Assembly: GCA_044869805.1 (NCBI GenBank)
Contig: JBIOXV010000207.1
Location: 8,062-72,061, forward strand
Source: Thermoanaerobaculia bacterium
GTDB lineage: Bacteria > Acidobacteriota > Thermoanaerobaculia > Multivoradales > SZUA-115
Direction of reading: 5' to 3'
DNA: 64,000 nt
Below the pieces are notes generated by a model. It was not told where the DNA came from, searched no databases, and worked only from the letters and a program-made list of their open reading frames with translations. Positions 4,958 to 50,294 of this stretch are shown here, in pieces. Position numbers and translations under genes: made by a program. Position 1 is the stretch's first letter. Every line of letters starts with the position of its first letter.

Positions 4958-7264
4958 ATGCCTGCCGCCAGTGGCTTTGTCGCGCTCGCCCTGCTCGCCG
5001 CGCCGGGCGACGACCCTCGTGCCGTCGACCTCCGCAAGCTCGACCCGCGGGTGACGTTGGTCGAGAGTCAGCTCGCGGGGCGCTGGGACGCGGCGTTGCG
5101 GGAGACCGAGCGCCTGCTCGCCACCGATCCCGAGCTCTCCCGCCGCGCCGGCCTCCACTACCTGCGCGGGCGCCTCCTCGACCGCCTGCAGCAGGGCACC
5201 GAGGCTTCGAGCGCTTTCCTCGCCGCGATCGCCAGCCATCCCGGCCTCGCCCTCTACAGCTACTACCGCCTGGCTCTCGAGCACGAGCGGCTCGGCCATC
5301 CCGAGATGGCGGCCGGGCTGATCGCACACGTGGTGGGCGCCGACCAGCCGTTCGCCGAGATGCGCATGGCGGTCGAGGTGCTGCGCCGCTCCCTCGCCGC
5401 CGGCGGCGACTGCCGCCTGCTGGGAGGCATCCGCGAGCAGCGCTTCGAGGCCAGGGCGCGGCGCGAGCTGCAACTGACGCGCGCCGAGTGCGCGCTCTCC
5501 GAAGGCCAGCCGGCGCGGGCGGCCGAGATCGTCGCCGCCCTGCTGCGCGAGACGCGAGAGGACGACATCGCCTACCAGGCGGCGCGGCTGGCGACCGACC
5601 AGCTCCTCGGCCGGGCCGGCGCCGGCTTCATGCTGGCGGTGGGCATGACGCTGCACGAGCACCGCGACTTCGCGCGGTCCTCGACGCTCCTCGACCGCGC
5701 GCTCTCCGCCGCCGGCCCGCTGCCGGCGCTGCTCGACGGCGCCGCCTTCGACCACCACTACGCGCGCCAGCGCAACGATTTCTGGCTGGGCGACTACCGC
5801 GCGGCGGCCGGCGGCTTCGGCGCGCTCGCCGAGCGCGCGCCGAGCGCCGAGAAGAAAGCGGACGCGCTCTACCAGGAGGGCCGCTGCCACGAGCTCCTGG
5901 GCGACGCCAGCCGCGCCTCGGCGAGCTTCCGCCGCGCCTACCTCGCCGACCCGGCGTCGGAGTGGGGGCCGCTCGGCCTGCTCTCGGCGCTGCGCGTCGA
6001 GTGGCGGGCCGGCGCCGAGAAGGCGGCGCTCGAGGCCTACGCGCTGCTCGCCACGCTGCGCCACGGGCGCGACCAGGCGGCACGCGGAGCCTTGTTCCTG
6101 GCCGCGTCCGATCTGGTCCAGGGCCGGGCCAACCGCGCCGCGGCCTGGCTCGCCGAGGCCGAGCGCGCGGCGCCCGATCTGGCGAGCGAGATCGGCTACT
6201 GGCGGGGCCGCCGCGCCGAGCTCGCCGGCGAGCGCGAGAAGGCCGTGCTCTCCTACCTCGAGGTGCTGCGCCGCGACGCCTACCAGCCGTTCGCCGCGGC
6301 GGCGCGCGAGCGGTTGGCGGCTCCGGCGCTCGCCCCCGCCGCGCGCGACGTCGGGCTGGGCCTCGCCGCCTCCGAGCGCACCGACGGCCTGTACGCGGCC
6401 TGGCAGCTGCTCGGCGACCGGCATCCGCGGGGCCAGGCGGCGATGGCCGCGCTCGCCCAGCGCCTGGCCCAGGACCCGAGCCTGGTGCCCTTCCTGAAGG
6501 CATTGCCGGTGCCGGTCGGGAGCTGGCCGCTGTGGACCATGCCGCTCGGCCGGCCGGAAGAGGTGCTGCTCGCGCTCGGCCTGTTCGAGGAGGGGGCGCC
6601 GGCCGTGGCGCGGGCCTTCCCGATCTCGGTCCCGATCCTCGCCCTGACCGGCAGCCGCCATCTCGCGGCGGCCGGCGAGACCCGCGAGGCGCTGCGCGTG
6701 GCGGAGGTGCTGGGCGAGCGGCTGCCGCGCACCGCGCCGCATCGCCTGCTGATCCGGCCCTACCGCGAGCTCCTCTACCCGCTGCCGTACCGCGGCCTCC
6801 TCGAGGCCGAGACCGGCAAGCGCGGGGTCGAGCCCATGCTGCTGGCCGCCATCATCCGCGAGGAGAGCCGCTTCGATCCGCGGGCGCTCTCCGGAGCCTC
6901 GGCGCGCGGCCTCACCCAGTTCACCCAGCAGACCGCGCAACGCTTCGCCGAGCGCATCGGCATGCCGACGATCGAGATTGCCGACCTCTATCGGCCGCCG
7001 GTGGCGATCGCGCTCGGCGCCGTCCTGCTGGCGGACCTCGGCCGGCAGTTCCCCGGCGCCGACGCCGCGGTGGTCGCCGCCTACAACGCCGGCGAGGACC
7101 AGGCCCGTCTGTGGCAGCGCTACTGCTTCAGCACCGAGCCGGCCGAGTTCTACACCAAGGTGGCATTCCGCCAGACCCGCGGCTATCTCGGCAAGGTGTT
7201 GACCAGCCGTGCCCACTACCGCGAGATCTACGAGCGGGACGCGGGATACGGAGTCCCCAAGTAA
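4958..7264 (+). CDS. lytic transglycosylase domain protein with N-terminal TPR-like repeats (Slt-like)
   Basis: C-terminal SLT domain motifs (EESRFDPRALSGASARGLTQF, AYNAG), a long alpha-helical repeat region, and a signal peptide. Confidence 0.75.
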   Translation: MPAASGFVALALLAAPGDDPRAVDLRKLDPRVTLVESQLAGRWDAALRETERLLATDPELSRRAGLHYLRGRLLDRLQQGTEASSAFLAAIASHPGLALYSYYRLALEHERLGHPEMAAGLIAHVVGADQPFAEMRMAVEVLRRSLAAGGDCRLLGGIREQRFEARARRELQLTRAECALSEGQPARAAEIVAALLRETREDDIAYQAARLATDQLLGRAGAGFMLAVGMTLHEHRDFARSSTLLDRALSAAGPLPALLDGAAFDHHYARQRNDFWLGDYRAAAGGFGALAERAPSAEKKADALYQEGRCHELLGDASRASASFRRAYLADPASEWGPLGLLSALRVEWRAGAEKAALEAYALLATLRHGRDQAARGALFLAASDLVQGRANRAAAWLAEAERAAPDLASEIGYWRGRRAELAGEREKAVLSYLEVLRRDAYQPFAAAARERLAAPALAPAARDVGLGLAASERTDGLYAAWQLLGDRHPRGQAAMAALAQRLAQDPSLVPFLKALPVPVGSWPLWTMPLGRPEEVLLALGLFEEGAPAVARAFPISVPILALTGSRHLAAAGETREALRVAEVLGERLPRTAPHRLLIRPYRELLYPLPYRGLLEAETGKRGVEPMLLAAIIREESRFDPRALSGASARGLTQFTQQTAQRFAERIGMPTIEIADLYRPPVAIALGAVLLADLGRQFPGADAAVVAAYNAGEDQARLWQRYCFSTEPAEFYTKVAFRQTRGYLGKVLTSRAHYREIYERDAGYGVPK

Positions 7265-7325: not shown

Positions 7326-8090
7326 TCAGCGCCGGGGGCGCGGTTTCTCGCTGGCGGGTGCCGCGATGGTGTCGACCACCGGCGGCAGGCGGTCGTGCCG
7401 GCGGTCCCAGAGGTTGACGACGTCGGCCGCGCGCTCCAGGTCGGCGGTCCAGCGCACCACCTCCTCGTTCAGCCGCTGCTCGCGGAGCACGGCGCGGACC
7501 TGCTCGCGCACCTGCTCGAGCGGCGGCACGGTCTCGCCCTTGGCGGCCAGGGCCGGCACCATCTCCTCCTCGTAGTACTGGCGGATGTCGTCGGCGCTGA
7601 CGAAAACGCGCGAGCCCAGGCGGCGCTCGATGTAGGCGAGGATGGCGAGCTGGCGCGCCACGAGCTGCTTCAGGCCCGCCTCGGTGAGCGACTGCTCCCG
7701 CAGGCGTTGCTGGTAGGCAGCCTCGTTGGGGAAGCGGCTGCGGATCTCCTCGACCTGGGCCTCGATCTCGGCCACCGGCACCTCGAGTAGGCCCACGCGG
7801 TCGACCTCGTGGAAGCGCAGCCGCTGCTGGATCAGCTCCTCGAGCGCCCGGCGCGACACGGCGTCCGGGGTCTCGCCCGGCTGCGGTGGGTCGACCAGCC
7901 CTAAGCGCAGGGCGCGCTCGACGTCGGAGAGCAGGATCGGGTCCTCGTCGACCACGGCGACGATGCGGTCCTCGAGCTCGAGCGCCGCATCGCGGCCCGG
8001 TGCCTGGCCGTGGGCGGTGGCCGCGACGAGAACCGCGGCGAACATCGTCGCGGCAAAGGGGGCCGCGCGAGAGCGCCGGGAAGCGGCCAT
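7326..8090 (-). CDS. SurA N-terminal domain-containing periplasmic chaperone-like protein
   Basis: Signal peptide and alpha-helical SurA_N-like region. No PPIase domain was seen. Confidence 0.45.
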   Translation of the reverse strand: MAASRRSRAAPFAATMFAAVLVAATAHGQAPGRDAALELEDRIVAVVDEDPILLSDVERALRLGLVDPPQPGETPDAVSRRALEELIQQRLRFHEVDRVGLLEVPVAEIEAQVEEIRSRFPNEAAYQQRLREQSLTEAGLKQLVARQLAILAYIERRLGSRVFVSADDIRQYYEEEMVPALAAKGETVPPLEQVREQVRAVLREQRLNEEVVRWTADLERAADVVNLWDRRHDRLPPVVDTIAAPASEKPRPRR

Positions 8091-8146
8091 GACCGCATGG
8101 TACCATCGCCGCTCTCGCGGCCCGGCGCGAGCTCGACCCTCTCAAG

Positions 8147-8878
8147 ATGGCATCTCCCCGCGGCCGTCTGCTCGTCGTCTCGACCCCGATCGGCAACCTG
8201 GAAGACCTCTCGCCGCGCGCCCGCGCGGCCTTCGAGCGCGCCGACCTGGTGGCCTGCGAAGACACGCGCCACACCGGCCTGCTGCTCTCCAAGCTAGGCA
8301 TCAAGCGACCGCTGGTGTCGCTCCACGAGCACAACGAGCGGCAGCGCCTGCCCGGCCTGCTGGAGGAGCTGGGCCGCGGCCGGGTGATCGCCGTGGCCTC
8401 CGACGCCGGCACGCCCTTGGTCTCCGATCCCGGCTTCCTGCTGGTGCGCGAGGCCGCCGCCCTGGGGTTCGCCGTCGAACCCGTGCCCGGGCCTTCGGCG
8501 TTGCTCGCCGCGCTCGTCGCCTCCGGCCTGCCGCCTCACCCCTTCACCTTCGCGGGCTTCCCGCCGCCCCGCGCCGGCAAGCGCCGCGCCTTCTACCGCG
8601 CGCTCTCCGTTCTGCCCCACACGCTGGTGATCTACGAGTCGCCCCACCGCCTGCTCCCGAGCCTCGAGGATGCGCGCGCCGAGCTGGGCGACCGCCCCGC
8701 CGCCCTCGCCCGCGAGCTCACCAAGCTGCACGAGGAGATGGTGCGCGGCCGGCTGTCGGAGATCGCCGCCGAGCTCGGCTCGCGGCCTTCGATCAAGGGG
8801 GAGATCGTCCTCGTGGTGGCGCCACCCGCCAAAGGCGCGGCGCCGGAAGCGACCGCTACTCCGCGAGACCCGAGCTGA
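8147..8878 (+). CDS. rsmI: 16S rRNA (cytidine1402-2'-O)-methyltransferase
   Basis: RsmI N-terminus (LxVVxTPIGNLxDLSxRA, ACEDTR) and a tetrapyrrole-methylase fold. Confidence 0.85.
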   Translation: MASPRGRLLVVSTPIGNLEDLSPRARAAFERADLVACEDTRHTGLLLSKLGIKRPLVSLHEHNERQRLPGLLEELGRGRVIAVASDAGTPLVSDPGFLLVREAAALGFAVEPVPGPSALLAALVASGLPPHPFTFAGFPPPRAGKRRAFYRALSVLPHTLVIYESPHRLLPSLEDARAELGDRPAALARELTKLHEEMVRGRLSEIAAELGSRPSIKGEIVLVVAPPAKGAAPEATATPRDPS

Positions 8879-11381: not shown

Positions 11382-13925
11382 ATGATGAGAAGAAGCCACC
11401 TCCAGCTCCTGACCCTTTGTAGCGTGTGCGTCCTGGCTCTGGTCGCGCTGGCGCCGCTCCCCACCATTTCGGCCCACGCCAAGGAAAAGGACGCGGACCG
11501 CATCAAGGCGCTGCCGGCCAAGTACCAGGCGTGGCTCGAGGAGGTGGACGTGCTGATCTCGAAGGAGGAGAAGGCGGCCTTCCTCGAGCTCAAGGAGGAC
11601 TACCACCGCGACGCCTTCATCGCGCGCTTCTGGAAGGCCCGCGACCCGTTCCTGGACACCGCCCGCAACGAGTTCCGCGACCGTTTCGAGCAGACGGTGG
11701 CGCTCGCCCGCACCACGTTCGGCGACCTCAAGGAGGAGCGGGCGCGCATGATGCTCCTGAACGGCGAGCCGGGCGAGGTGCGCAAGGTGCAGTGCCCGAC
11801 CGTGCTGTGGCCGACCGAGATCTGGGCCTACGCCGGCAGCGACCGCGTGAGCTACCAGTTCTTCCTCGTCTTCTACCGCAAGTGGGGTGCCGGAAGGTAC
11901 ACGCTGTGGCGGCCGATCGAGGGCCTCCAGGAGCTGTTCCAGGAGCCGATGGGCGCTGGCGGCACGGGCGGCGGAAACCTGCTGGCCCAGATCCGCGACC
12001 GCTGCTACCGCGGCGACGAGGTGGCGGCCATCCTCGGCTCGATGATCGCCCAGGGCGCCCTCGGTTACGAGACCACCCTCGCCGAGGCGACGGAGAAGCC
12101 TCCTCCGCCCGAGGGCGAATGGGTGTCCACTTTCGAGGCCTACTCGACCGATCTGCCGGCGGGCGCGGCCTCGCTGCCCGCCACGCTCGAGGTTCTCTAC
12201 CCGGGCCGGCGGCAGAACCGCACCGCGGTCGAGGGCGTGATCACCGTGCCGCTGGCCGACGCGGGGCAGGCCGCGCTCGCCGACTACCGCTCTTACAACT
12301 TCGTGCTCACCGGCGAAGTCCTGGCGGGCACCGAGCTCTTCGACTCCTTCCGCTACAAGTTCGACCTGCCGGTCGGCGAGGCCGCCGGCGCGTCGTACCC
12401 CCTGGTCTTCCAGCGCTACCTGCGGCCCGGCTCCTACCGCCTGGTGGTGAAGCTCGAGGACCTGAACGGCAAGAAGTTCTTCCGCTCCGATCGGGCGCTC
12501 GAGGTGCCGGAGGTCGGCGAGGCGCCGCCACCTGCGCCCGACCCCGACACGGCGCGCATCCTGGCCGAGGCCAACGCGGTGCTGGCCACCGGCGAGACCA
12601 CGCTCGCGATCGTCGAGCCCCAGGGCGAGCTGCTCTCCGGCATGCGGCGCATCGACACGCTGGTGACCGGCAGCGGCATCGCCCGCGTGACATTCCGTCT
12701 CGACGGCCGCGAGGTGCTGACCAAGAAGGTGCCGCCCTACTCGGTGGAGCTCGACCTGGGCTCGCTGCCGCGGCCGCGCACCCTCGAGGCCTCGGCCTAC
12801 GACGCCTCCGGCCACGAGCTGGCCTCGGACCGCGCGTTGATCAACGCCACGCCACACCGCTTCGCCGTCCGCCTGACCGAGCCGCGGCGCGGCGCCACCT
12901 ACAAGGGCAGCCTGGTGGCCCGCGCCGAGGTCGAGGTGCCGGAGGGCCGCTCGATCGAGCGCGTCGAGTTCTTCTTGAACGAGACCCGCGTCGCCACCCT
13001 CTACCAGCAGCCCTTCGAGCAGCCGATCGTGCTGCCGGACAACGAGCCGCTGGCCTACGTGCAGGCCGTGGCGTATCTGCCGGACGGCAACTCCACCCAG
13101 GACCTGGTGTTCGTCAACGCGCCCGACCTGCTGGAGGAGATCGACATCCAGTTCGTGGAGCTCTACACCACGGCCCTCGACCGCGACGGACGGCCGAGCT
13201 TGGGCCTCGAGGAGGGCAGCTTCCGGGTCTTCGAAGACGGCGCGCCGCAGGAGATCCGGCGCTTCGAGGTGGTGCGCGATCTCCCCATCCACGCCACCGT
13301 GCTGCTCGACGTCTCTGGCTCGATGGAGGACAGCCTGGACCAGACGCGCGAGGCGGCGCTCGGCTTTTTCCAGCAGATCCTCGAGCCCAAGGACCGCGCC
13401 GCGCTGGTTACCTTCAACGACCGGCCGACGCTCGAGGTCAAGTTCACCAACGAGGTCACCGCCTTGGCTGGCGGCCTCGCGGGCTTGAAGGCGGAGCGCG
13501 GCACCGGGCTCTACGACAGCCTGATCTTCAGCCTCTACTACTTCAACGGCATCAAGGGCCAGCGCGCGCTGCTGGTGCTCTCCGACGGCAAGGACGAGTC
13601 CAGCCGCTTCAAGTACGAGGACGCGCTGGAGTACGCCCGCCGCGCCGGGGTGACGATCTACTCGATCGGCCTGTCGCTGCCCAAGGGCGAGGCGCGCCGC
13701 GAGCTGGCGCATTTCGCGGACCAGACCGGAGGCCGCGCCTACTTCCTCGACTCCGCGGCCGAGCTGCCGGCAATCTATGCCGCGATCGAGGAGGAGCTGC
13801 GCTCGCAGTACCTGATCGCCTACCAGTCGACCAACACCTCGAAGGAGGCCACGTTCCGCAGCGTGGAGGTGAAGATCGAGAAGGCTGGGTTCGAAGCGAA
13901 GACCATTCGTGGTTATTACCCGTGA
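11382..13925 (+). CDS. secreted GWxTD-like N-domain / C-terminal VWA-domain protein, paralog 1 (Acidobacterial VWFA-related family)
   Basis: Signal peptide, N-terminal FWxxRDPxxxTxRNE and GEP..WPxEIWxY motifs, C-terminal VWA domain with MIDAS DxSGS (LLDVSGSM), and a terminal GYYP. Start is at the ATG preceded by GAGAGGA. Confidence 0.7.
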   Translation: MMRRSHLQLLTLCSVCVLALVALAPLPTISAHAKEKDADRIKALPAKYQAWLEEVDVLISKEEKAAFLELKEDYHRDAFIARFWKARDPFLDTARNEFRDRFEQTVALARTTFGDLKEERARMMLLNGEPGEVRKVQCPTVLWPTEIWAYAGSDRVSYQFFLVFYRKWGAGRYTLWRPIEGLQELFQEPMGAGGTGGGNLLAQIRDRCYRGDEVAAILGSMIAQGALGYETTLAEATEKPPPPEGEWVSTFEAYSTDLPAGAASLPATLEVLYPGRRQNRTAVEGVITVPLADAGQAALADYRSYNFVLTGEVLAGTELFDSFRYKFDLPVGEAAGASYPLVFQRYLRPGSYRLVVKLEDLNGKKFFRSDRALEVPEVGEAPPPAPDPDTARILAEANAVLATGETTLAIVEPQGELLSGMRRIDTLVTGSGIARVTFRLDGREVLTKKVPPYSVELDLGSLPRPRTLEASAYDASGHELASDRALINATPHRFAVRLTEPRRGATYKGSLVARAEVEVPEGRSIERVEFFLNETRVATLYQQPFEQPIVLPDNEPLAYVQAVAYLPDGNSTQDLVFVNAPDLLEEIDIQFVELYTTALDRDGRPSLGLEEGSFRVFEDGAPQEIRRFEVVRDLPIHATVLLDVSGSMEDSLDQTREAALGFFQQILEPKDRAALVTFNDRPTLEVKFTNEVTALAGGLAGLKAERGTGLYDSLIFSLYYFNGIKGQRALLVLSDGKDESSRFKYEDALEYARRAGVTIYSIGLSLPKGEARRELAHFADQTGGRAYFLDSAAELPAIYAAIEEELRSQYLIAYQSTNTSKEATFRSVEVKIEKAGFEAKTIRGYYP

Positions 13926-41160: not shown

Positions 41161-41712
41161 ATGAGCGAGGCTACCGAGAAACGGCTGTCTCTCGAGCTCG
41201 ACGGCACCGTCCTCGAGCTCGTCGAGGGCGATATCAGCGAGCTCGAGGTCGAGGCCCTGGTCAACCCTGCCAACGAGTCGCTCAAGTTGGGCACCGGGGT
41301 GGCGGGCGCGATCAAGAAACGCGGCGGGCCCTCGATTCAGGAGGAGTGCGACCGCATCGGCGGTACGCCGGTCGGCACCGCGGTGATGACCGGCGCCGGC
41401 AAGCTCAAGGCCAAGCGGGTGATCCACGCCGTGGGCCCGCGCATGGGGGACGGCGACGAGGACCGCAAGCTCGCCGCCGCGGTGCGCGCCGCGCTCGCCC
41501 TGGCGGACAGGAACGGCCTGCGCTCCATCGCCCTGCCGGCGATCTCGACCGGCAACTTCGGCTTCCCCATCGACCGCGCTGCCCGCATCATGCTGACCGA
41601 GATCCACCGTTACCTGCAGGGCGGGACGAAGCTCGACCGGGTCATCGTCTGCCTGTGGGGCGACGACGCCTTCGACACCTTCCGGCGCGAGCTGCGGCGC
41701 GGCTTCCGTTGA
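41161..41712 (+). CDS. macro domain protein (O-acetyl-ADP-ribose deacetylase-like)
   Basis: Macro-domain motifs (VNPANESL, GGTGVAGAI, ISTGNFGFP). Confidence 0.8.
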   Translation: MSEATEKRLSLELDGTVLELVEGDISELEVEALVNPANESLKLGTGVAGAIKKRGGPSIQEECDRIGGTPVGTAVMTGAGKLKAKRVIHAVGPRMGDGDEDRKLAAAVRAALALADRNGLRSIALPAISTGNFGFPIDRAARIMLTEIHRYLQGGTKLDRVIVCLWGDDAFDTFRRELRRGFR

Positions 41713-43634
41713 TGCTCTCCGAGCTGAAGGGCGATCTCGCCGGCCGCCTCGCGGCCCGCATCCGCGAGCTCTACGGCTTGGAGCAGCAGCCGGCGCTGGA
41801 GGTGCCGCCGCGCCGGGACCTCGGCGACCTCTCTTTCCCCGGCGCCCTGCAGCTCGCCAGGACGCTCAAGAAGAACCCGCGCGCCATCGCCACCGAGCTC
41901 GCCCAGGGTCTGGAGCTGCCGCCCCGGGTCGCCGAGCTCAAGGTCGAGGGCGCCGGCTACCTCAACTTCTACCTCCACCGCCCGGCGGCCGTAGCCCGGC
42001 TGCTGGCCGAGGAGGTCCTGGCACCCGCGCCGCGGGCCGGCAAGGTGGTGGTCGAGCACACCAACATCAACCCCAACAAGGCGGCGCACATCGGCCACCT
42101 GCGCAACGCCGTGCTCGGCGACGTGCTGGTGCGCTGCCTGCGCGCACTGGGCTTCGCGGTCGAGACCCAGAACTACATCGACGACACCGGCGTGCAGCTC
42201 GCCGACGTGGTGGTGGGCTTCGCCGACTTGCGCGGCATGGGCGCCGCCGAGGTCGCGGCGCTGCCCGAGCCCTTCGACTTCTACTGCTGGGACCTCTACA
42301 GCGAGGTCGGCCGCTGGTACGAGGCCGACCCGGCGCGCCGCGAGCTGCGCCAGGCGACGCTCCACGGCCTCGAGTCCGGGCACGGCGAGCGCGCCGAGCT
42401 CGGCCGCCTGGTGGCGCGGCGGGTGCTCCGCCGCCACCTCGCCACCATGCGCCGGCTGGGGATCGGCTACGACCTGCTGACCCGCGAGAGCGAGGTGCTG
42501 GCCCGGCAGTTCTTCACCCGTGCCTTCGAGCTGCTCGAGGCCTCGGGCGCCGTGCGACTGGAGGAGGAGGGCAAGAACCGGGGGTGCTGGGTGATGCCGC
42601 TCGCGGGGAGCGAGGAGTTCGCCGGCCTCGAGGACCCCGACAAAGTGATCGTGCGCTCGGACGGCACGGTGACCTACGTGGGCAAGGACATCGCCTACCA
42701 GCTCTGGAAGTTCGGCCTCCTGGGCTGCGATTTCAGCTATCGCTTCTGGGAGGAGGAGGGCGTCTGGGAGACTGGTGCGGACGGGGTGGCCGACCATCCA
42801 AACTTCGGCGGCGCCTCGCGGGTGATCAACGTCATCGACGCGCGCCAGAGCTACCTGCAGAAAATCGTGCGCGCCGGGCTCGAAGCCCTCGGCCACCGCG
42901 AGCAGGCGGCGGCCTCCGTGCACTTCGCCTACGAGATGGTGGCGCTCTCGCCGGCCACCGCCCGCCAGCTCGGCTTCGCGGCCGAGGAGGAAGGCGAGGC
43001 CGGCAAGGCGCTCGAGATGTCCGGCCGCAAGGGCATCGGGGTCAAGGCCGACGATTTGCTCGACCAGTTGATCGAGAAGAGCCGCGAAGAGATCGCGGAG
43101 CGCAATCGCGAGCTCCCCGAGGAGGATCTCGCCGACCTGGCCCGCCAGATCGCCACCGCCGCGCTGCGCTTCTTCATGGTCAAGGCGACGACCACGCGCG
43201 TCATCGCTTTCGACTTCGAGGAGGCCCTGGCCTTCGAGGGCGAAACCGGGCCCTACTTGCAGTACTCGTCGGTGCGGGTGCGCAACATCCGCCGCAAGCT
43301 CGCCGAAGCGGGGCTCGCCCCGCGGGTGACGGCGGCCGAGGTCGAGGCCCTGCCTGCCGGCCGCCTGTCGGACGACCTCTGGGACCTGGCGCTCGGCGTG
43401 GCGCAGATTCCCGAGGTGGTGGAGCGGGCGGCAGAGACGCTGGAGCTCTCGGCCGTGGCCCGTCACGCCCTGGAGCTCGCCCAGCGCTTCAACGCCGTCT
43501 ACCACCGCCATCCCATCCTGCAGGAGGAGGACCCCGAGGTGCGCACCGCCCGCCTGGCCGCGGTCGAGGTCTTCGAGCGCGGCTTGCAAGCGCTGACCGG
43601 CCTGCTGGGCGTGCCCCTGCCGGAGCGGATGTAG
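41712..43634 (+). CDS. argS: arginine--tRNA ligase
   Basis: HIGH-class I motif (PNKAAHIGHLRN), ArgS N-domain and anticodon-binding domain. The ATG overlaps the upstream stop (ATGA). Confidence 0.9.
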   Translation: MLSELKGDLAGRLAARIRELYGLEQQPALEVPPRRDLGDLSFPGALQLARTLKKNPRAIATELAQGLELPPRVAELKVEGAGYLNFYLHRPAAVARLLAEEVLAPAPRAGKVVVEHTNINPNKAAHIGHLRNAVLGDVLVRCLRALGFAVETQNYIDDTGVQLADVVVGFADLRGMGAAEVAALPEPFDFYCWDLYSEVGRWYEADPARRELRQATLHGLESGHGERAELGRLVARRVLRRHLATMRRLGIGYDLLTRESEVLARQFFTRAFELLEASGAVRLEEEGKNRGCWVMPLAGSEEFAGLEDPDKVIVRSDGTVTYVGKDIAYQLWKFGLLGCDFSYRFWEEEGVWETGADGVADHPNFGGASRVINVIDARQSYLQKIVRAGLEALGHREQAAASVHFAYEMVALSPATARQLGFAAEEEGEAGKALEMSGRKGIGVKADDLLDQLIEKSREEIAERNRELPEEDLADLARQIATAALRFFMVKATTTRVIAFDFEEALAFEGETGPYLQYSSVRVRNIRRKLAEAGLAPRVTAAEVEALPAGRLSDDLWDLALGVAQIPEVVERAAETLELSAVARHALELAQRFNAVYHRHPILQEEDPEVRTARLAAVEVFERGLQALTGLLGVPLPERM

Positions 43635-43643
43635 AGTCCGCGG

Positions 43644-44174
43644 GTGGACATCCCGCGCGCCACCCGAGTTGTCGCCGCTCATTTCGAGGGCCGAGGCGCT
43701 CCCTTCGCCGTGATCGGCGGCCTGGCACTGCACGCCTATGGCCTGCCTCGTGCCACATTCGACGTTGACTTCGCGACCGACGCGGCCAACCAGACGGAGC
43801 TGATCGAATTCCTGGAGTCGCTTGGCTACAGGACCCTTCATCGCTCCGCGGGCTACTCCAATCATCTCCATGACGATCCGGCCTGGGGCCGGGTCGACGT
43901 CGTGTATGTGCGAGACGAAACCAGCCGGCGCCTATTCACCGACGTACGCCGGCTGGAGCTGCTTCCCGGCCTGGTGGCTCCCGTTCCACGTCCGGAGCAT
44001 CTGATCGCGATGAAGGTGCACGCCATGGCGAACAGCCCCGAGCGCAGCTTCCAGGAGCTGGCGGATATCCGGTACTTGCTCACGCTTCCTGGAGTCGACG
44101 AGGGCGAGGTCCGAGAGGCCTTCGCCAAGAGAGGTTTGGCCCATCGCTATGACGACCTCGGCCGGTCGATCTGA
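43644..44174 (+). CDS. nucleotidyltransferase-fold protein (minimal nucleotidyltransferase/AbiEii-like)
   Basis: GGLALHAYGLPRATFDVDF resembles the GS...D.D motif of minimal nucleotidyltransferases. Confidence 0.45.
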   Translation: MDIPRATRVVAAHFEGRGAPFAVIGGLALHAYGLPRATFDVDFATDAANQTELIEFLESLGYRTLHRSAGYSNHLHDDPAWGRVDVVYVRDETSRRLFTDVRRLELLPGLVAPVPRPEHLIAMKVHAMANSPERSFQELADIRYLLTLPGVDEGEVREAFAKRGLAHRYDDLGRSI

Positions 44175-44355
44175 GCCGCTCGACCTGGAGCGCGACCTGC
44201 CGACGAGCCCCGAGGACGTCGCGGCGCTGGCCGCCGCCCGGCGGATACCGGTGTCGCCGGCCGCCTACGAGCAGTTCCTGAGATCGCTGGGTGACTTGCC
44301 CTACGAGGAGTTGCTGCATCGCCGCGGGCCGCGGGGCGAGCCTTTCGAGCTCTAG
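44149..44355 (+). CDS. small hypothetical protein (68 aa) whose 3-prime end is duplicated at 49455-49590
   Basis: Overlaps the end of the upstream gene. Its last 30 codons have a diverged paralogous copy downstream of the island. Confidence 0.3.
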   Translation: MTTSAGRSEPLDLERDLPTSPEDVAALAAARRIPVSPAAYEQFLRSLGDLPYEELLHRRGPRGEPFEL

Positions 44356-44634
44356 GAGCATTGGTGAAGGCCGTTGCCTGCGATCCGGGGTGCGCCCACT
44401 CTGTACAGCGCGAGCAGATGTGGCCTGAATGCTTGTTTCTGTGAGACCATCTGCTACTGCTCTGTACATACGACACCGTAACCTGCTGAGTGCGCTTCAG
44501 AACGAGCACTTTCGGGCCCGAGTAATGTGAAACCAGAAGAAGCCCATGCTCGCAGCTTATGAAGACAGGGTCGCCTTGAGCTGGCTCAGAGTTGTCGGCC
44601 TTCAGGCGGCCCAGGAAGAGCAGACGAATCAGCG

Positions 44635-45813
44635 ATGAGAGGGCGCCAGCCAGACGCGGCGGAACGACTACGGTCCGCTCTCGTTTCGGCGAAGTACACA
44701 GCCGGCAGGACCCATAGCTTCTACCTGTACCCTGCTCGGTTCTCACCCGAGATCGCGAAGGCTGTGGTCGAGTCCTTCACGGAGCCAGGTGACTGTGTCC
44801 TGGACCCATTTATGGGTGGTGGTACGGCTGTCGTAGAGGCGCTCAGCATTGGGCGGTCCGTGCTCGGTGTCGACCTGAACGCCCTAGCGCACTTCGTCGC
44901 TGAAGTAAAGACTCGACCTCTGTCGGGCCGGGACGAGGACGCCATCCAATGGTGGGCCTGCGGTGCCGCTCGGGGTCCGCGGTGGGCGCCGTCCGAGTCC
45001 ATGGCCGACGTCCAGAATCTCCCGGTCTCGATGAGGCGACTTCTCTCAGCGGCTCTCGCTCGGACAGAGGATCTCGACTTTCCGCGACAGCGCGCTTTTG
45101 CCCGCGGTGTGCTCTTGCGCCTTGGTCAGTGGGCTCTGGATTGTCGGGACGATTCGGCTCCAAGCAGACAGGACCTCGCGGAGAAGCTGCCGGAGCTAGC
45201 GGATCAGATGCTCGTGGGCCTGCGCGAGCTTGTTGAGTCGTGTCAGGCCGCGGGTATCCCGAAGAACCGCATAGTTGGGAAGCGACGGCTGTTGTGCCGC
45301 AATGCCGCTGGGCTTCATAAAGATCCGCGCATTGAACAACTCCGCGTGCGGCCACGCCTCGTCTTCACGTCTCCACCGTACCCGTGTGTCCATGTCCTCT
45401 ATCACCGTTGGCAGGTGCGCGGCCGTCGAGAGACCCCAGCCCCCTATTGGATCGCCCAGGTGCCGGATGGCTTCTACGCGAGCCACTACACGGGGGGGAG
45501 CCGCACGCCGACTGGAGAACGAAACTACTTCTCGATGATCCGGGCCGTGTTCACGTCGGTGCGACAAATTATCGCGCCCGACGCCGTCGTCATTCAGCTG
45601 GTGGGGTTCGCCGATTTCAAGCGACAACTCCCGCTCTACTTGTCCACGATGGCGGAAGCGGGCTTCGATACCGACGCCAACGCTGCGGGCAGCGGCCTAG
45701 TTCGGAACGTGCCCAACCGCAAGTGGTACGCAAAGCTCCAAGGGGACGTTGATGCCTCCTCGGAGGTGCTGCTGTTCCACCGGCCGCGTCGGGAGTGCAG
45801 GTCCCTGCACTAG
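44635..45813 (+). CDS. DNA methyltransferase (amino-MTase, N6A or N4C; motif I ... TRD ... motif IV order)
   Basis: Motif I DPFMGGGT near the N-terminus and motif IV TSPPY at about aa 245. Confidence 0.6.
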   Translation: MRGRQPDAAERLRSALVSAKYTAGRTHSFYLYPARFSPEIAKAVVESFTEPGDCVLDPFMGGGTAVVEALSIGRSVLGVDLNALAHFVAEVKTRPLSGRDEDAIQWWACGAARGPRWAPSESMADVQNLPVSMRRLLSAALARTEDLDFPRQRAFARGVLLRLGQWALDCRDDSAPSRQDLAEKLPELADQMLVGLRELVESCQAAGIPKNRIVGKRRLLCRNAAGLHKDPRIEQLRVRPRLVFTSPPYPCVHVLYHRWQVRGRRETPAPYWIAQVPDGFYASHYTGGSRTPTGERNYFSMIRAVFTSVRQIIAPDAVVIQLVGFADFKRQLPLYLSTMAEAGFDTDANAAGSGLVRNVPNRKWYAKLQGDVDASSEVLLFHRPRRECRSLH

Positions 45814-45822
45814 GTGGCGCAG

Positions 45823-48168
45823 CTATGGTCCGGCGGCCTGCGGGCCTCGGTAGAGGGTTCGGATCATCGGGATGATGATCCGCGCGATCCCGTCACAGTA
45901 GAGGCTGACGCGCCTCAGCTCGTCGACCTCACCTTCTTCCTCCGTTTCAGCGTTGCCATTCTTGGCCTCAGCCTTGGCCTCAGCCCTGTCCTGCAATTCC
46001 TTCTGCATTCCGAGGGCGCAGAGCAAGAGGCCATACTTGAACCAGTACTCGATGAGCGGATGGTCTTCCTCCTTCGCGCGGACGAGAGCATCTGTGAGGT
46101 ATGCGTTCTTCCTGTTGGCGAAGTACTCGAGCCCCCCGCTGTCGTCGTGCAGGATCTTGAGCGAGACCCCAGAGTCGTCGTAGTCCTTCCACTTGATCTC
46201 CGGGATGGCAAGGGTCGGCGCCTGACTCCGAGTTCCAGGCTGGCTGCGAGGGCCGCGTTGGTTCGGCCCCGGCGGCCTCGGATCCGACTCGGGTTCGGCC
46301 ACCAGAGTGAATCGGGACACGAAGGGCGAATCCCGTGTCTCAGTCTGGAGGTCCTCCACGCGGACCTCCACATCGATACGGTCGCCAGGCTTGGCGTCCC
46401 ATGGGACTCGCAGCAGGGCGTTCCAGCGCCCGTTCCAGAGGTTCTGGTGCTCAACGAGGTTCGGTGGCGAGACGCTTAGCGACCCCGGTGAGTCGCTTCT
46501 CCTGAAGTAGTCGTTCACGGCATCGGTTTCGAACTCTACGCGGCACGTCAGGTTGACCGGACAGGACTTCACCAGTCCACTTGGCGGGTTCTTTGTCAGG
46601 CGGAAGTAGGTCGGGAATTTCCTCCCAGTGAAGGGGGCCTCAGGGTCGGGGCCGGCCTTGGTGATCAGCCGGTCGCCGCTCCCGAAGAGCCGTGCGAGCA
46701 AGGGGTCAGACTTCAGGAGCTCGCTGAAGAGGTTCTTGGTTTCGTCCTCGTTGCTGAGGGTGTCCTCGATCTCCTTCTTCCGGCGTGAAGCGTTGAGCTG
46801 GCGAAGGCCAGCGTGGTCCCGCAGCACTTCCTTGAGCCGGTCGACTACCTCGTCGTAGATGTCGTTCTTCCTCACCCGGTCGCGCGACGCCATGAAGAAG
46901 TCCTCTCTTACCCCCGGGTCCATCGCTGTGCAGTCGATCGAGACGAGGAGGTGGTCCTTCAGGTAGTCCCACTTCAACCGGCGTGCGACGAAGTCCGAGG
47001 GAAGGCCGCCGTGCACCTGGCCGTTGACGGTAAAGAACACACCGTGTGGAATGTGGCGGGGCCTCACAGATTCGCGGAACACGGCGATTCGATAGGGCAG
47101 CAGCCCGATCCCCAGGAGGTCAAGGTCCGCGTAAGCTGGGAAGCCTACTTCGACCTTCGAGTCCTCCGGCGCATCATCCGACCCGATCGTGGCCCAGATT
47201 CCGGCCACGGTCGTGCTGAAGTAGTTGGCCCGGTAATCCCGGGTCTCAGTGAGTCGGAAGGGGAGGCAGGGTGAGTGCAGGAATCGCTCGAGCTCGTAGC
47301 GTGCCTCGAGTGTCGCGATTCCCCTCCCGCCCTTCCACTCGAAGTTGTACAGCTTGACGCACGTGCCGTATGGCAGATCGAGCATGTACGGCCTGGGCTG
47401 CGCTGTGCTCCGATCCTCGGGAAGCACCTTCACCGCCGCCGCGGCAAAGCGAGGCACTCTACCTCCCGGAGCGAGATAGACGTACATCGAGCTCGGGCGG
47501 GAGGGAGACGGCATCATGCGCCGGACGATCGTGAACCCCCAGAGGTCCTTCGAGGAGTCTCCTGGCCGTACTGGTAGGTCTGGGTGCCTGCGCGACAGGA
47601 TGAGCTGCATCTTGTGCTTACCGCAGAATGGAAGCGCGCCGGTGCCGCCGCAGTTGTACTTCCCCTGGACGAAGGGGATGCCCACCTTGTTCATGCGGAT
47701 CAAGGAGAGGAAGGTGCTCGGGAACTCGTCGGGAGTCTGGCCCTCGCCCTTGTCGATGACCAAGTATGACGGAGAGGCCTTCTCGCCGAGCACGACGACG
47801 TGGAGCCTCTTCGCCAGCTCTGTCTGTTCCTTGGCCACGAGGTTGGAGAGGAGCCCATCCTTCACTTGGAAGAACTCACCGACTGCTCGGGCCATGCTCT
47901 CCGGCGCGGCCGAGCTCTTGGGGTCGATGCCGCGCTTGAGGCACTCCGCCATCAGGAGCGCGTCGATGCCATTGACGATCTTCTCGACGAAGGCAGCGGT
48001 TGCCTCTGTCTGCTGATTCGTGACTACCGATCGGTTGTTCGGCATGTCCCCGAGCGGATGCCAGACCTCTTCGTTCTCGAGGCCGTACCCGGCCCGGGCG
48101 AGGATCTCATCCGCGCGGTCTTCGGCTTCAGCGTGGAGCAGGTGATCGAAGAGCGTAGTCTCGTCCAT
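45823..48168 (-). CDS. large protein with an N-terminal GHKL (MORC/MutL-like) ATPase motif set; unknown C-terminal 500 aa
   Basis: N-box EKIVNGIDA (ExxxNxxDA), G1 box DKGEG (DxGxG), and G2-like GKYNCGGTGA, at the spacing expected for GHKL ATPases. In an operon with the DGQHR gene. Confidence 0.4.
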   Translation of the reverse strand: MDETTLFDHLLHAEAEDRADEILARAGYGLENEEVWHPLGDMPNNRSVVTNQQTEATAAFVEKIVNGIDALLMAECLKRGIDPKSSAAPESMARAVGEFFQVKDGLLSNLVAKEQTELAKRLHVVVLGEKASPSYLVIDKGEGQTPDEFPSTFLSLIRMNKVGIPFVQGKYNCGGTGALPFCGKHKMQLILSRRHPDLPVRPGDSSKDLWGFTIVRRMMPSPSRPSSMYVYLAPGGRVPRFAAAAVKVLPEDRSTAQPRPYMLDLPYGTCVKLYNFEWKGGRGIATLEARYELERFLHSPCLPFRLTETRDYRANYFSTTVAGIWATIGSDDAPEDSKVEVGFPAYADLDLLGIGLLPYRIAVFRESVRPRHIPHGVFFTVNGQVHGGLPSDFVARRLKWDYLKDHLLVSIDCTAMDPGVREDFFMASRDRVRKNDIYDEVVDRLKEVLRDHAGLRQLNASRRKKEIEDTLSNEDETKNLFSELLKSDPLLARLFGSGDRLITKAGPDPEAPFTGRKFPTYFRLTKNPPSGLVKSCPVNLTCRVEFETDAVNDYFRRSDSPGSLSVSPPNLVEHQNLWNGRWNALLRVPWDAKPGDRIDVEVRVEDLQTETRDSPFVSRFTLVAEPESDPRPPGPNQRGPRSQPGTRSQAPTLAIPEIKWKDYDDSGVSLKILHDDSGGLEYFANRKNAYLTDALVRAKEEDHPLIEYWFKYGLLLCALGMQKELQDRAEAKAEAKNGNAETEEEGEVDELRRVSLYCDGIARIIIPMIRTLYRGPQAAGP

Positions 48169-48184
48169 TGGCGGGGTCCCCCTC

Positions 48185-49306
48185 CTACGTCCGCGCCAAG
48201 GCTTTGCCGGCCTTAGGCGCTCCAGGAGGGATCAGTCGCTGGTGCTCCCTGGCAGAGACGCTGAGGCCAAGAACGCGCTTCAGGACGGCCAGGGTTTGCA
48301 CTCTCGCTTGCCGGTTCGAGACCACGGAGCCCGCGGTGATGCACACGTTGTCCCAAACGGGATTGACCTTCGAGCCGACCGACTTCCGCCAGTCGAGTTC
48401 CCGCAAGGGCTCGAGTCGCGCCTGCCAGTCACGCGGGCGCTCCTCGATGAGCGATCGCCCTGCGCCTCCGAGTGCTCGCATCACCACGGCATGTGTGTTG
48501 ATCCTCTCCTGGCGCAGCTCGGGCGCCTTGAGGTCGCCAGCCGCGACCTTGCGCCAGTCGGTGATCACTGTGCTCAGGGCCGTCCAGTACTCCACTGCGA
48601 GGCTGAGCCTCAATTCGTAGTCCTGACTGCCACGCTTATCCACTTTCTGACCAACGAGTTCCTCGTTCGCGTCGTAGAGCGTGGACAGCGTGAAGAGCTT
48701 CGGCGATCGAATCGGGATCGTGATCTTCTCCTTGTCGACCATGCCCCGGAACACGTCGACCTTCTCGGAGACATCCATGGTCAAGGCTGAGAGGTTGTCG
48801 CGGTGGTCGTAGAGGACGTCGAGCGACTTGGACGTCTTGTGCGCGTAGCGGTTGAGATCCGTGAACATCTGTTGCAGTCGCTCGAGGTTCTCCATCGGGA
48901 ACAGGAGAACCGAGATCTTGTCCTTGCCTAGGGCGGGGTTCTCCTTGATTGCTGCTGCGATGCCAGCGGACCTGTGCTGACCGTCATTGATGACCAGCTC
49001 GAGGTTCTCGAGCTCCATCTCGAGAGTGCCCAGATCCAAGTTCTCGGCGATCGGGAGGAACTTCACCTCGGAGGAGTAGGAAGCGGTGATCGAGGAGAAC
49101 AGGTAGCCGTCCTCGTTATCGAGGATGTACTTCATGATGTCGGGTACGCGACTCCTGTTCAGGACGCGCTGGGCGCGGAGCTCGGGCGTGCACTGCTCCC
49201 AGTCGTTGAAGCGGAACAACCGAGGAACCTCGGCGAGCGACACCGAGATCGTGAAGTACTGCCGCCCGCCCATTAACCCTCGGATGGCTGGGATGAAGAC
49301 CCTCAT
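48185..49306 (-). CDS. DGQHR-domain (DndB-like, ParB/Srx fold) protein
   Basis: Literal motif LVINDGQHRSAGIAAAI. The size (373 aa) matches the DndB-like family. Confidence 0.7.
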   Translation of the reverse strand: MRVFIPAIRGLMGGRQYFTISVSLAEVPRLFRFNDWEQCTPELRAQRVLNRSRVPDIMKYILDNEDGYLFSSITASYSSEVKFLPIAENLDLGTLEMELENLELVINDGQHRSAGIAAAIKENPALGKDKISVLLFPMENLERLQQMFTDLNRYAHKTSKSLDVLYDHRDNLSALTMDVSEKVDVFRGMVDKEKITIPIRSPKLFTLSTLYDANEELVGQKVDKRGSQDYELRLSLAVEYWTALSTVITDWRKVAAGDLKAPELRQERINTHAVVMRALGGAGRSLIEERPRDWQARLEPLRELDWRKSVGSKVNPVWDNVCITAGSVVSNRQARVQTLAVLKRVLGLSVSAREHQRLIPPGAPKAGKALART

Positions 49307-49345
49307 TGTTTGCCCTCCATATCCGAGCTCTCAACGGATGTCGCC

Positions 49346-49443
49346 AGAGCTGTCACGAGATAGTGTAGGAGCTGAGGATTACAAATGTCAAGAGCTGTCT
49401 GGCATGTAGTTGAGAGCTGTCAACTTGAGGTTAGAGAGCTGTA
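49346..49443. promoter_or_regulatory. four direct repeats AGAGCTGT(C/A), spaced 45/22/22 bp, in the upstream region of the DGQHR-GHKL operon
   Basis: Copies at about 49346, 49391, 49413 and 49435, lying between the DGQHR gene start (49306) and the island boundary. Confidence 0.5.
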
Positions 49444-49593
49444 GGGTTAGCCACCCGCCGACTTCAAACAGTTCCTGAGAACGCAGGGCGATCTGTCCTA
49501 CGAAGCGCTGCTCACGCGCCGCGGGCCTCGCGGCGCGTTTCGAGCCCTTGGGTCCTCCTTGACGGGGATACAGGAATACGGTTTACTGGCCCC

Positions 49594-49893
49594 ATGAAGG
49601 CTACGATCGAAGTACCGGACGATCTCTACCGCCAGGTAAAGGCAAAGAGTGCCCTCGAGGGACGAGCTGTGCGAGACGTGGCGGAGGAGCTGTTTCGCGG
49701 CTACGTGAGCCGCGAGCCTCCCCGGGCGAGCGAGGACCAGCAGGACGCTGGCACCTCCAGGACGCGGGACGAGGACCCGATGCCTCCCTGGTTCGGCGTC
49801 TTGCGGAAATACGCGCGTCGAGTCCAGCAGCACGACATGGATGCGATCCGCAAGAGCATCGCCGCGGGCGTTGCCAGGGAGCGTGGCCTCTGA
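49594..49893 (+). CDS. vapB: VapB-like antitoxin
   Basis: Small protein with an MKATIEVPDDLYRQVKAKSA N-terminus, directly upstream of a PIN gene with a 2-bp gap. Confidence 0.55.
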   Translation: MKATIEVPDDLYRQVKAKSALEGRAVRDVAEELFRGYVSREPPRASEDQQDAGTSRTRDEDPMPPWFGVLRKYARRVQQHDMDAIRKSIAAGVARERGL

Positions 49894-49895
49894 AC

Positions 49896-50294
49896 GTGGG
49901 TCTCGACACCTCGGTCGTGGTGCGGGTCCTCGCGGGCGAACCGGAAGGGCTCGCTCTCGCCGCCCTACGGTTCCTGCAGGAGCGCCAGCGAGCGGGCGAC
50001 CGCGTCCTGATCTCCGACTTGGTGCTCGCCGAGACCTACCACGCGTTTCAACATCACTACGGCGCCTCGAAGAAGGACACGCTGGCCGCCCTTCGAGCCT
50101 TCCTGGCGACTCCGGGAGTCGAGGGCACGGGCGAGGCGCCGAGAGTGCTGGTCGCTCCAGGCCTGGAGTCCGCCAAGCCGGGCTTCGTCGATCGAGTCAT
50201 CCATCGGGACTATCTGCGATCGGGTGCCGAGCAGGTGGCGACCTTCGAGCGAGCCTCCGCCAAGCTGATCGAGGTGGCGGTGCTGGGAGTCTGA
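49896..50294 (+). CDS. vapC: PIN-domain toxin VapC
   Basis: GLDTSVVV..D.LVLAE PIN acidic residues. GTG start. Confidence 0.75.
   Translation: MGLDTSVVVRVLAGEPEGLALAALRFLQERQRAGDRVLISDLVLAETYHAFQHHYGASKKDTLAALRAFLATPGVEGTGEAPRVLVAPGLESAKPGFVDRVIHRDYLRSGAEQVATFERASAKLIEVAVLGV

Follow-up and report, generated by a model that had tools for sequence, protein, structure and literature searches.

A foreign three-gene cassette between two diverged copies of a small-gene 3′ end at an accessory hot spot of a Thermoanaerobaculia bacterium

Introduction

Islands and prophages that carry an integrase integrate at the 3′ ends of tRNA genes or protein genes, bringing with them a replacement for the gene end. 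Defence genes and other accessory genes also occupy chromosomal hot spots between conserved core genes, and the contents of such hot spots are exchanged by homologous recombination in the flanks. The locus described here lies in a 64-kb stretch of DNA from a Thermoanaerobaculia bacterium (contig JBIOXV010000207.1), a host referred to in this work as a soil Acidobacterium; the whole stretch that was analysed is called the window. Within the window, a segment of ~5.1 kb (44357-49453, the island) is inserted in the 3′ part of a small gene and is flanked by two diverged copies of the end of that gene, copy A on the left and copy B on the right.

Displacement of a gene 3′ end, with the old end left behind as an orphan fragment, has been described for rhs loci, for contact-dependent inhibition (CDI) loci and for effector–immunity loci of type VI secretion systems (T6SS), and homology-facilitated illegitimate recombination was suggested as its mechanism (PMC5361080, which cites Jackson et al. 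2009 for C-terminal displacement). For the genes that the island carries, the closest descriptions are those of the DndB of the Dnd phosphorothioation system and of MORC and paraMORC GHKL ATPases that are linked to restriction–modification genes (PMC4507180; PMC10853773; Iyer et al. 2008, through PMC8011034). DndB binds its own promoter in Salmonella (PMC4507180), and the cargo resembles restriction–modification-associated GHKL-ATPase neighbourhoods (Iyer et al. 2008). The explanation that we favour for the present locus, with a probability of about 0.5, is displacement of the small-gene 3′ end by one-sided homologous recombination together with illegitimate recombination, followed by exchange of the finished arrangement as a block.

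The insertion and its empty site

The features that define the insertion are as follows.

44149-44355, + strand: small gene, 68 amino acids, intact, overlapping the end of a nucleotidyltransferase gene
44257-44356, + strand: copy A, the last 100 nt of the intact small gene including the stop codon
44357-44577: left spacer, 221 nt, guanine plus cytosine (GC) content 0.56, between the small-gene stop codon and the cassette core
44578-49451: cassette core, 87% nucleotide identity to positions 13582-8771 of L092, a metagenome-assembled genome
49454-49551, + strand: copy B, a 5′-truncated, frameshifted fragment of another allele of the small gene
49559-49587, + strand: promoter-like site that belongs to vapBC (TTGACG and TTTACT with 17 nt between them), its end 6 nt upstream of the ATG
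43784-50162: 6.4-kb block, delimited by mismatch density, that differs from the contig L100 and holds both repeat copies

The 5.1-kb segment is foreign DNA and a real insertion in the 3′ part of the small gene. Its GC content is 0.620, compared with 0.709 for the whole window (standard deviation 0.028 over 5.1-kb windows), which is the minimum of the 64-kb window, and its tetranucleotide deviation of 0.385 is the largest in the window (mean 0.159, standard deviation 0.056). The initial annotation had described a low-GC island and had proposed sliding profiles of GC and tetranucleotides as a check: 44357-49453 is the extreme of the window on both and the drop in GC is real, but the value of 55–60% that was given is too low for the island overall and fits its two ends only. 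Locally, GC is 0.58 at 44.4–44.8 kb and 0.57–0.60 at 48.6–49.6 kb, and it is 0.56 and 0.50, respectively, in the non-coding left and right ends.

The island is absent from three relatives, namely L005, L100 and L103. Of these, L100 is a 3.3-kb Logan contig (short-read metagenomic) that is near-isogenic to the window, its flanks being 96.9% and 98.8% identical. In L100, 38 nt separate the small gene from vapB downstream of it, and within them stands the promoter-like sequence that is also found after copy B in the window. As the two junctions match, the junction between copy B and vapBC is the ancestral junction between the small gene and vapBC. This is the empty site that had been predicted from the sequence of the window: the small gene of L100 runs straight into the vapBC promoter and vapB. 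The promoter-like site is also conserved in L097 and L098, where the sequence upstream of it is unrelated, whereas in L100 a full small gene stands upstream. A metagenome scan with the PIN-domain toxin, i.e., the vapC-like product, gave three short loci only, useful just for defining this promoter, and exact-protein look-ups of the toxin and of the DndB protein of the cassette gave nothing beyond short contigs with the same sequence as the window. The contig L088, considered as an alternative junction, was ruled out, being identical in sequence to the window.

Two copies of separate origin

Copies A and B form by far the longest direct repeat within 43–51 kb. An ungapped alignment of 82 nt gives them 76% identity, and the match covers ~100 nt when two small indels are allowed. 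The longest stretches without a mismatch measure 12 and 11 nt, and tblastn within the window finds the pair with an E-value of 5e-9. A diverged flanking duplicate of the gene end had been reported in the initial annotation, and the peptides quoted there are correct. Copy B comprises only the last ~30 codons and has no start codon; 2 nt are deleted ahead of its final motif, and TTG takes the place of the stop codon TAG. It ends exactly at the position of the small-gene stop codon, after which comes the conserved vapBC promoter. The subgroup-specific stretch QFLR.LGDL.YE.LL is common to copies A and B, which identifies copy B as a piece of a close allele rather than a chance motif match.

In pairwise comparisons, identity among copy A, copy B and the alleles of L005, L100 and L101 is 73–83%. 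The proportion of synonymous differences (pS) is 0.46 between A and B and 0.47 between A and the allele of L005, i.e., the same as between species. Thus, A and B are alleles of separate origin that did not arise by duplication at insertion, and the view that they are not a fresh target-site duplication holds good. The ratio of non-synonymous to synonymous divergence (dN/dS) is 0.26 for A and B and 0.26–0.38 for the pairs that include B, compared with 0.06–0.17 among the intact genes. The range of 0.26–0.38 shows that copy B was a functional gene over most of its separate evolution and that it decayed afterwards.

The slot in relatives and the exchanged block

The genes around the insertion are listed below.

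41161-41712: macro-domain gene
41715-43634: argS
43644-44174, + strand: AbiEii-like nucleotidyltransferase, 176 amino acids (Pfam PF08843, E 2.4e-8)
49594-49893, + strand: vapB-like antitoxin, 99 amino acids
49896-50294, + strand: PIN-domain toxin, 132 amino acids (Pfam PIN, slightly above the Pfam cut-off at E 4.4e-5)
ending at 50303, convergent: FAD-oxidoreductase gene

In L005, which is the closest genome in the species collection (its ArgRS is 89% identical), the gene order is argS, nucleotidyltransferase, small gene and oxidoreductase, and the last two are convergent genes whose stop codons overlap. Synteny between the window and L005 breaks at 44355 and resumes at 50312, the synteny on the oxidoreductase side being based on nucleotide alignments. 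L103 has an arrangement like that of L005. The vapBC pair is absent from both L005 and L103 and present in L100. In L101 (1925-2161) and L102 (687-875), with ArgRS 91% identical, a different gene (MNVWWCNQSRRWKEEH...) without a Pfam match begins 44 nt past the small-gene stop codon, the fourth occupant seen at this insertion point. In more distant relatives, argS lies directly next to the following core gene. Four different occupants are found behind the small gene among the relatives, which supports the earlier suggestion that the site is an accessory hot spot. The immediate neighbours of the island are core genes that are syntenic in relatives, and the variable slot lies between argS and the convergent oxidoreductase gene. 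The sole tRNA gene found by a tRNA scan of the window is at 6.5 kb, with none near the island, and Rfam gave zero matches over 43.5–50.5 kb at E-values up to 1.

Comparison with L100 places the limits of the variable segment outside those of the island. The density of mismatches rises from 1.4% to 20% at 43784 and returns to 1.2% at 50163, i.e., the mosaic has the shape of a block. Since L100 diverges throughout this interval while its flanks are near-identical to the window, the unit that varies is the 6.4-kb block 43784-50162, which is larger than the island of the initial annotation. The mosaic looks like the pattern left by exchange via flanking homologous recombination.

L100 is itself no simple precursor of the locus in the window. 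In-frame deletions have removed 75 codons of its nucleotidyltransferase gene and 83 codons of its gene for the PIN-domain toxin (at its positions 1208 and 1808, where window positions 43889-44112 and 49914-50162 are missing), and its small gene and vapB are both intact. Toxin–antitoxin pairs usually decay in this order, which is a hint that the small protein acts as the antitoxin.

The small gene and its partners

The small gene belongs to a family of ~30 proteins of 67–89 amino acids, with conserved LDLERDLPTTPEDVAAL and C-terminal RRGPRGEPFEL motifs. A member of the family is preceded by an AbiEii-like nucleotidyltransferase gene in L005, L089, L090, L101 and L103. In L091, the gene upstream is 55% identical (tblastn) and has no Pfam match on record, and in L100 it is the internally deleted gene described above. 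As in most contexts examined the small gene overlaps the end of the gene for an AbiEii-like nucleotidyltransferase of ~170 amino acids, it is half of a two-gene module, of which the nucleotidyltransferase is the toxin-like half; the small protein is probably its antitoxin-like partner. The module differs in its order from AbiE, where an AbiEi antitoxin gene stands upstream of the AbiEii nucleotidyltransferase gene: here, the partner is the 68-amino-acid product of the downstream overlapping gene. The third-codon-position GC content of the nucleotidyltransferase gene is 0.77, compared with 0.93–0.96 in core genes. Besides copy B, tblastn in the window found no further fragment of a nucleotidyltransferase or small gene.

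On the other side of the island, the vapB-like gene ends 2 nt before the PIN-domain gene, the arrangement of a VapBC toxin–antitoxin pair. Both the nucleotidyltransferase and small gene upstream and vapBC downstream are present as had been described in the initial annotation.

The cassette and its distribution

The cassette core has three genes and a regulatory region.

44635-45813, + strand: N6/N4 DNA methyltransferase, 392 amino acids (Pfam PF01555, E 4.7e-13; PADLOC Type II MTase, E 2e-17)
45823-48168, − strand: MORC/MutL/Hsp90-like GHKL ATPase, 781 amino acids
48185-49306, − strand: DndB-family (DGQHR, ParB-like) protein, 373 amino acids (Pfam PF14072, E 1.4e-104)
49307-49451, − strand: promoter/operator region of the DndB operon, which is the right end of the cassette (promoter-like site 49391-49362)

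In the methyltransferase, motif I (DPFMGGGT, residues 57-64) stands well ahead of the catalytic TSPPYP (~residues 235-240), an alpha-type order of motifs. An SPPY motif often accompanies N4-cytosine methylation. In the ATPase, a Bergerat ATP-binding fold is joined by a middle domain of the S5 type, by beta-sandwich domains on the C-terminal side and by a helical tail. The protein is encoded next to the DNA methyltransferase, as in paraMORC neighbourhoods; by sequence, it falls outside the MORC and HATPase_c_3 families. It has no match in Pfam or NCBIfam (E 0.01), nor in PADLOC or PHROGs, and a profile search of PDB sequences with its family gave just one chance match. Its >2260 metagenome homologues are all annotated as hypothetical. 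The DndB protein scores 334 against NCBIfam TIGR03233 (cut-off 328), and its gene is the first of the DndB–ATPase operon. None of dndC, dndD and dndE was found in the region of the window or in L092, L093 and L095, so the cargo is no Dnd system.

The promoter of the DndB gene contains four or five ACAGCTC heptamers with a spacing of ~22 nt, one of which touches a −35 box of the sequence TTGACA. Conservation of the array extends to L092 (8700-8820) and L093 (6745-6820), and a variant of it is present in L095. The cassette copies that keep the array are 70–87% identical, and the array probably serves as operator to a DndB-like protein that regulates its own expression.

In every context examined, the DndB and ATPase genes are neighbours, with convergent methyltransferase-coding DNA beside the pair each time. 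L092, L093 and L095/L096 have this DNA in convergent orientation to the gene for the ATPase, and gene callers called it as a gene only in L093 and L096. The GC content of the cassette is 0.58–0.62, in hosts with a GC content of 0.60–0.71. The cassette has been transferred horizontally. The Thermoanaerobaculia genome L092 is of another genus, with ArgRS DNA just 78% identical to that of the window, and its cassette copy has 87% nucleotide identity over window positions 44578-49399, a gapped alignment reaching ~49451. The shared sequence leaves 110–220 nt at the left (44357 to ~44577) without a clear counterpart in L092. The left spacer as a whole is absent from L005 and L100 and not clearly common to the L092 copy, and it has no match in relatives, in the flank of the L092 cassette, in Pfam or in Rfam.

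The site of the cassette in L092 is unrelated to that in the window, as it lies between AbiE modules, and neither small-gene sequence nor a comparable flanking repeat is found beside it. In L093 and L095 the cassette is in other contexts again, with long flanking repeats absent; the repeats that do flank it in L092, L093 and L095 are short and probably chance matches. In L093, a 29-nt motif (CCGGGGACATAG core) occurs at 5075-5103 and, in tandem, on the other side of the cassette at 11760-11788 and 11784-11812. On one side it adjoins an IS481-family transposase gene, and the copies could be insertion-sequence ends or chance matches. Among 2.9 million IMG/VR viral contigs scanned with an alignment of the ATPase, no relatives were found, and tblastn against plasmids gave only ATPase homologues of 21–32% identity in other contexts. 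A description of the DndB–ATPase–methyltransferase trio was not found in any paper in the literature. The trio is widespread and outside the current family and defence-system libraries, and it is a reasonable candidate for a restriction–modification-like defence.

Proposed history of the locus

Displacement of the small-gene 3′ end could have proceeded as follows. The slot between argS and the oxidoreductase gene would have held an AbiEii-like nucleotidyltransferase gene, its small partner gene and then, directly, vapBC. Incoming DNA from a related bacterium would have carried a nucleotidyltransferase/small-gene module of its own, the ~220-nt spacer and the 4.9-kb cassette, in which the DndB-like protein has a promoter of its own. 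At one end, this DNA may have been joined by homologous recombination within or upstream of the module; at the other end, by an illegitimate joint that fell ~100 nt short of where the resident small gene ends. The outcome would be an intact small gene with the incoming 3′ end (A), the cargo, and the displaced resident end (B) on vapBC. An intact small gene was probably needed for survival, since its product would neutralise the nucleotidyltransferase, and copy B would have been left to decay after its displacement. Finally, the finished 6.4-kb block 43784-50162 could have been swapped between strains as an allele, by homologous recombination in its flanks.

The arrangement in the window has the parts that such a history leaves behind, i.e., an intact gene, a cargo, and a 5′-truncated old 3′ end that keeps the old downstream neighbour; moreover, the two ends come from different alleles and not from a duplication in situ. 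Displacement is favoured because no recombinase is found, because the target is not reused by the cassette elsewhere, and because L092 holds a second example. In L092, the 3′ end of a complete AbiEii toxin gene (~6918-7176) is repeated ~1.07 kb downstream as a 5′-truncated copy (~7985-8244); the two are 95% identical over 124 nt and then 80% identical over 54 nt, and they flank an insert of ~0.8 kb with toxin–antitoxin-like fragments. This is a second case of the displaced 3′ end pattern, in a different gene.

Several observations weigh against this history. The donor arrangement (small gene, spacer, cassette) was not found. The empty site is known from a single 3.3-kb short-read metagenomic contig, L100, in which the central 0.7 kb is a divergent allele (76–80% identical) and both toxin genes carry deletions. 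Where its frequency has been determined, homology-facilitated illegitimate recombination is a rare event (PMC5361080). Beside the start of copy B, the cassette ends on the right at the same point, within ~3 nt, in the window and in L092, which points to a defined terminus of an element over a random illegitimate breakpoint. Lastly, sequence similarity cannot show which copy came in, as identity to the alleles of L005, L100 and L101 is uninformative for native and incoming copies alike (all values 73–83%). The initial annotation had called copy B the original: it does keep the ancestral downstream neighbour, but similarity cannot tell. The mechanism of recombination and its direction are what we infer from the arrangement of the locus.

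Other explanations

The best of the alternatives, which we regard as possible but clearly less probable than displacement, is that the 5.2-kb unit is a site-specific integrative element with the small-gene 3′ end in its attachment site and a recombinase that was lost or acts in trans. Integration would then have rebuilt the gene (copy A) and left its original end (copy B) on the far side. Copies A and B are of equal extent, ~100 nt ending at the stop codon, as a Campbell-type single crossover yields; their identical runs of 12 and 11 nt could act as the crossover core; the empty site in L100 fits the prediction; and the right terminus of the cassette is the same in two genomic contexts. However, the cassette in L092, 87% identical, is at a different site without the small-gene sequence or a comparable repeat, the cassettes of L093 and L095 have no long flanking repeats, and the 2.9 million viral contigs hold no relatives. 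An integrase was found neither in the island, nor in its non-coding ends, nor in the immediate neighbours, which are syntenic core genes: scans with family libraries identified no recombinase among the three genes (methyltransferase, ATPase and DndB), and a Pfam search of six-frame pieces of both non-coding ends gave no match and no recombinase remnant. The initial annotation had noted this absence, had asked for integrase remnants in the flanks, and had read the pattern as an integrative element that brings a replacement gene end. Its insertion and its displaced end stand, but an integrase-type element is not indicated, given the longest identical run of 12 nt, the unrelated site in L092 and the lack of an integrase or remnant, and such an element is less likely than recombination-driven displacement with block exchange.

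It is unlikely, more so than site-specific integration, that the slot once held two tandem nucleotidyltransferase/small-gene modules and that the cassette, or a deletion accompanying it, removed the second nucleotidyltransferase gene and the 5′ half of its small gene, leaving copy B as the remainder of a resident paralogue. Toxin–antitoxin clusters here are mosaic and rich in fragments, as in L092, and A and B are old, separately evolved alleles. On the other side of the balance, L005, L100, L101, L102 and L103 have a single module each and no relative has two, tblastn in the window reveals no additional nucleotidyltransferase or small-gene fragment, and such a history needs more events than displacement does.

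A more speculative possibility, which we consider doubtful, is that the cassette is a discrete mobile defence unit without an integrase that settles in the 3′ ends of toxin–antitoxin genes and supplies or keeps a working gene end, and that, at the same low odds, its defined right terminus is the ACAGCTC array bound by its own ParB-like DndB protein. If this were so, recombination between the repeats would lose the cassette and leave a defective antitoxin, the cell would be killed, and the toxin–antitoxin pair would lock the cassette in place.

That the repeat is a coincidental motif match with unrelated DNA and the low-GC stretch is native hardly merits belief, for although RRGPRGEPFEL is conserved family-wide and inflates the similarity, copy B also has the subgroup-specific QFLR.LGDL.YE.LL, the composition of the island is extreme in the window, and the idea is refuted by the absence of the island from L005, L100 and L103, the 87% identical cassette in another genus (L092) and the empty site in L100.

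How the locus compares with known systems

The signature of a displaced 3′ end extends beyond polymorphic toxin loci, as it is seen here in a toxin–antitoxin cluster, and taken alone it is no proof of an integrase-type element. Recombination between A and B would delete the cassette and exchange the GEPFEL end of the small gene for the frameshifted end of B; if the small protein is an antitoxin, retention of the cassette may in this way be tied to the toxin.

Among its genes, the cargo resembles the Dnd system in that the DndB protein passes the NCBIfam equivalog cut-off and the repeats in its own promoter recall DndB autoregulation, but, unlike in the Dnd phosphorothioation system, dndA, dndC, dndD and dndE are absent beside it. 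Similarly, as in paraMORC neighbourhoods, a GHKL ATPase adjoins a DNA methyltransferase, whereas the 781-amino-acid ATPase, unlike MORC and paraMORC proteins, matches no curated family.

With integrase-borne islands, the locus shares the direct repeats of a gene 3′ end that flank foreign DNA, the intact gene and the empty site in a relative. It differs from them in that no integrase was found, in that the repeats are just 76% identical with at most 12 identical bases running, and in that other loci hold the same cargo and lack this attachment sequence. As in hot spots between core genes, the argS slot has different accessory genes in relatives, the mosaic boundaries relative to L100 are sharp, and the L100 flanks outside these boundaries are 97–99% identical; here, unlike in such hot spots, the boundaries of the swapped block lie inside two toxin genes and not in core genes.

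The rhs, CDI and T6SS loci differ from the present one in three respects: the gene here is a 68-amino-acid antitoxin-like partner of a nucleotidyltransferase and no large polymorphic toxin, the displaced piece is 100 nt only, and the cargo is an unrelated three-gene cassette of 4.9 kb, whereas theirs is a toxin tip with its immunity gene. As in those loci, incoming cargo stands between an intact gene that has gained a new 3′ end and, behind it, a 5′-truncated remnant of the old end that keeps the old downstream neighbour, mobile-element genes are not involved, and the locus is a recombination hot spot. The locus is a tidy and fairly ordinary example of gene turnover at an accessory hot spot, and its island is of a known kind.

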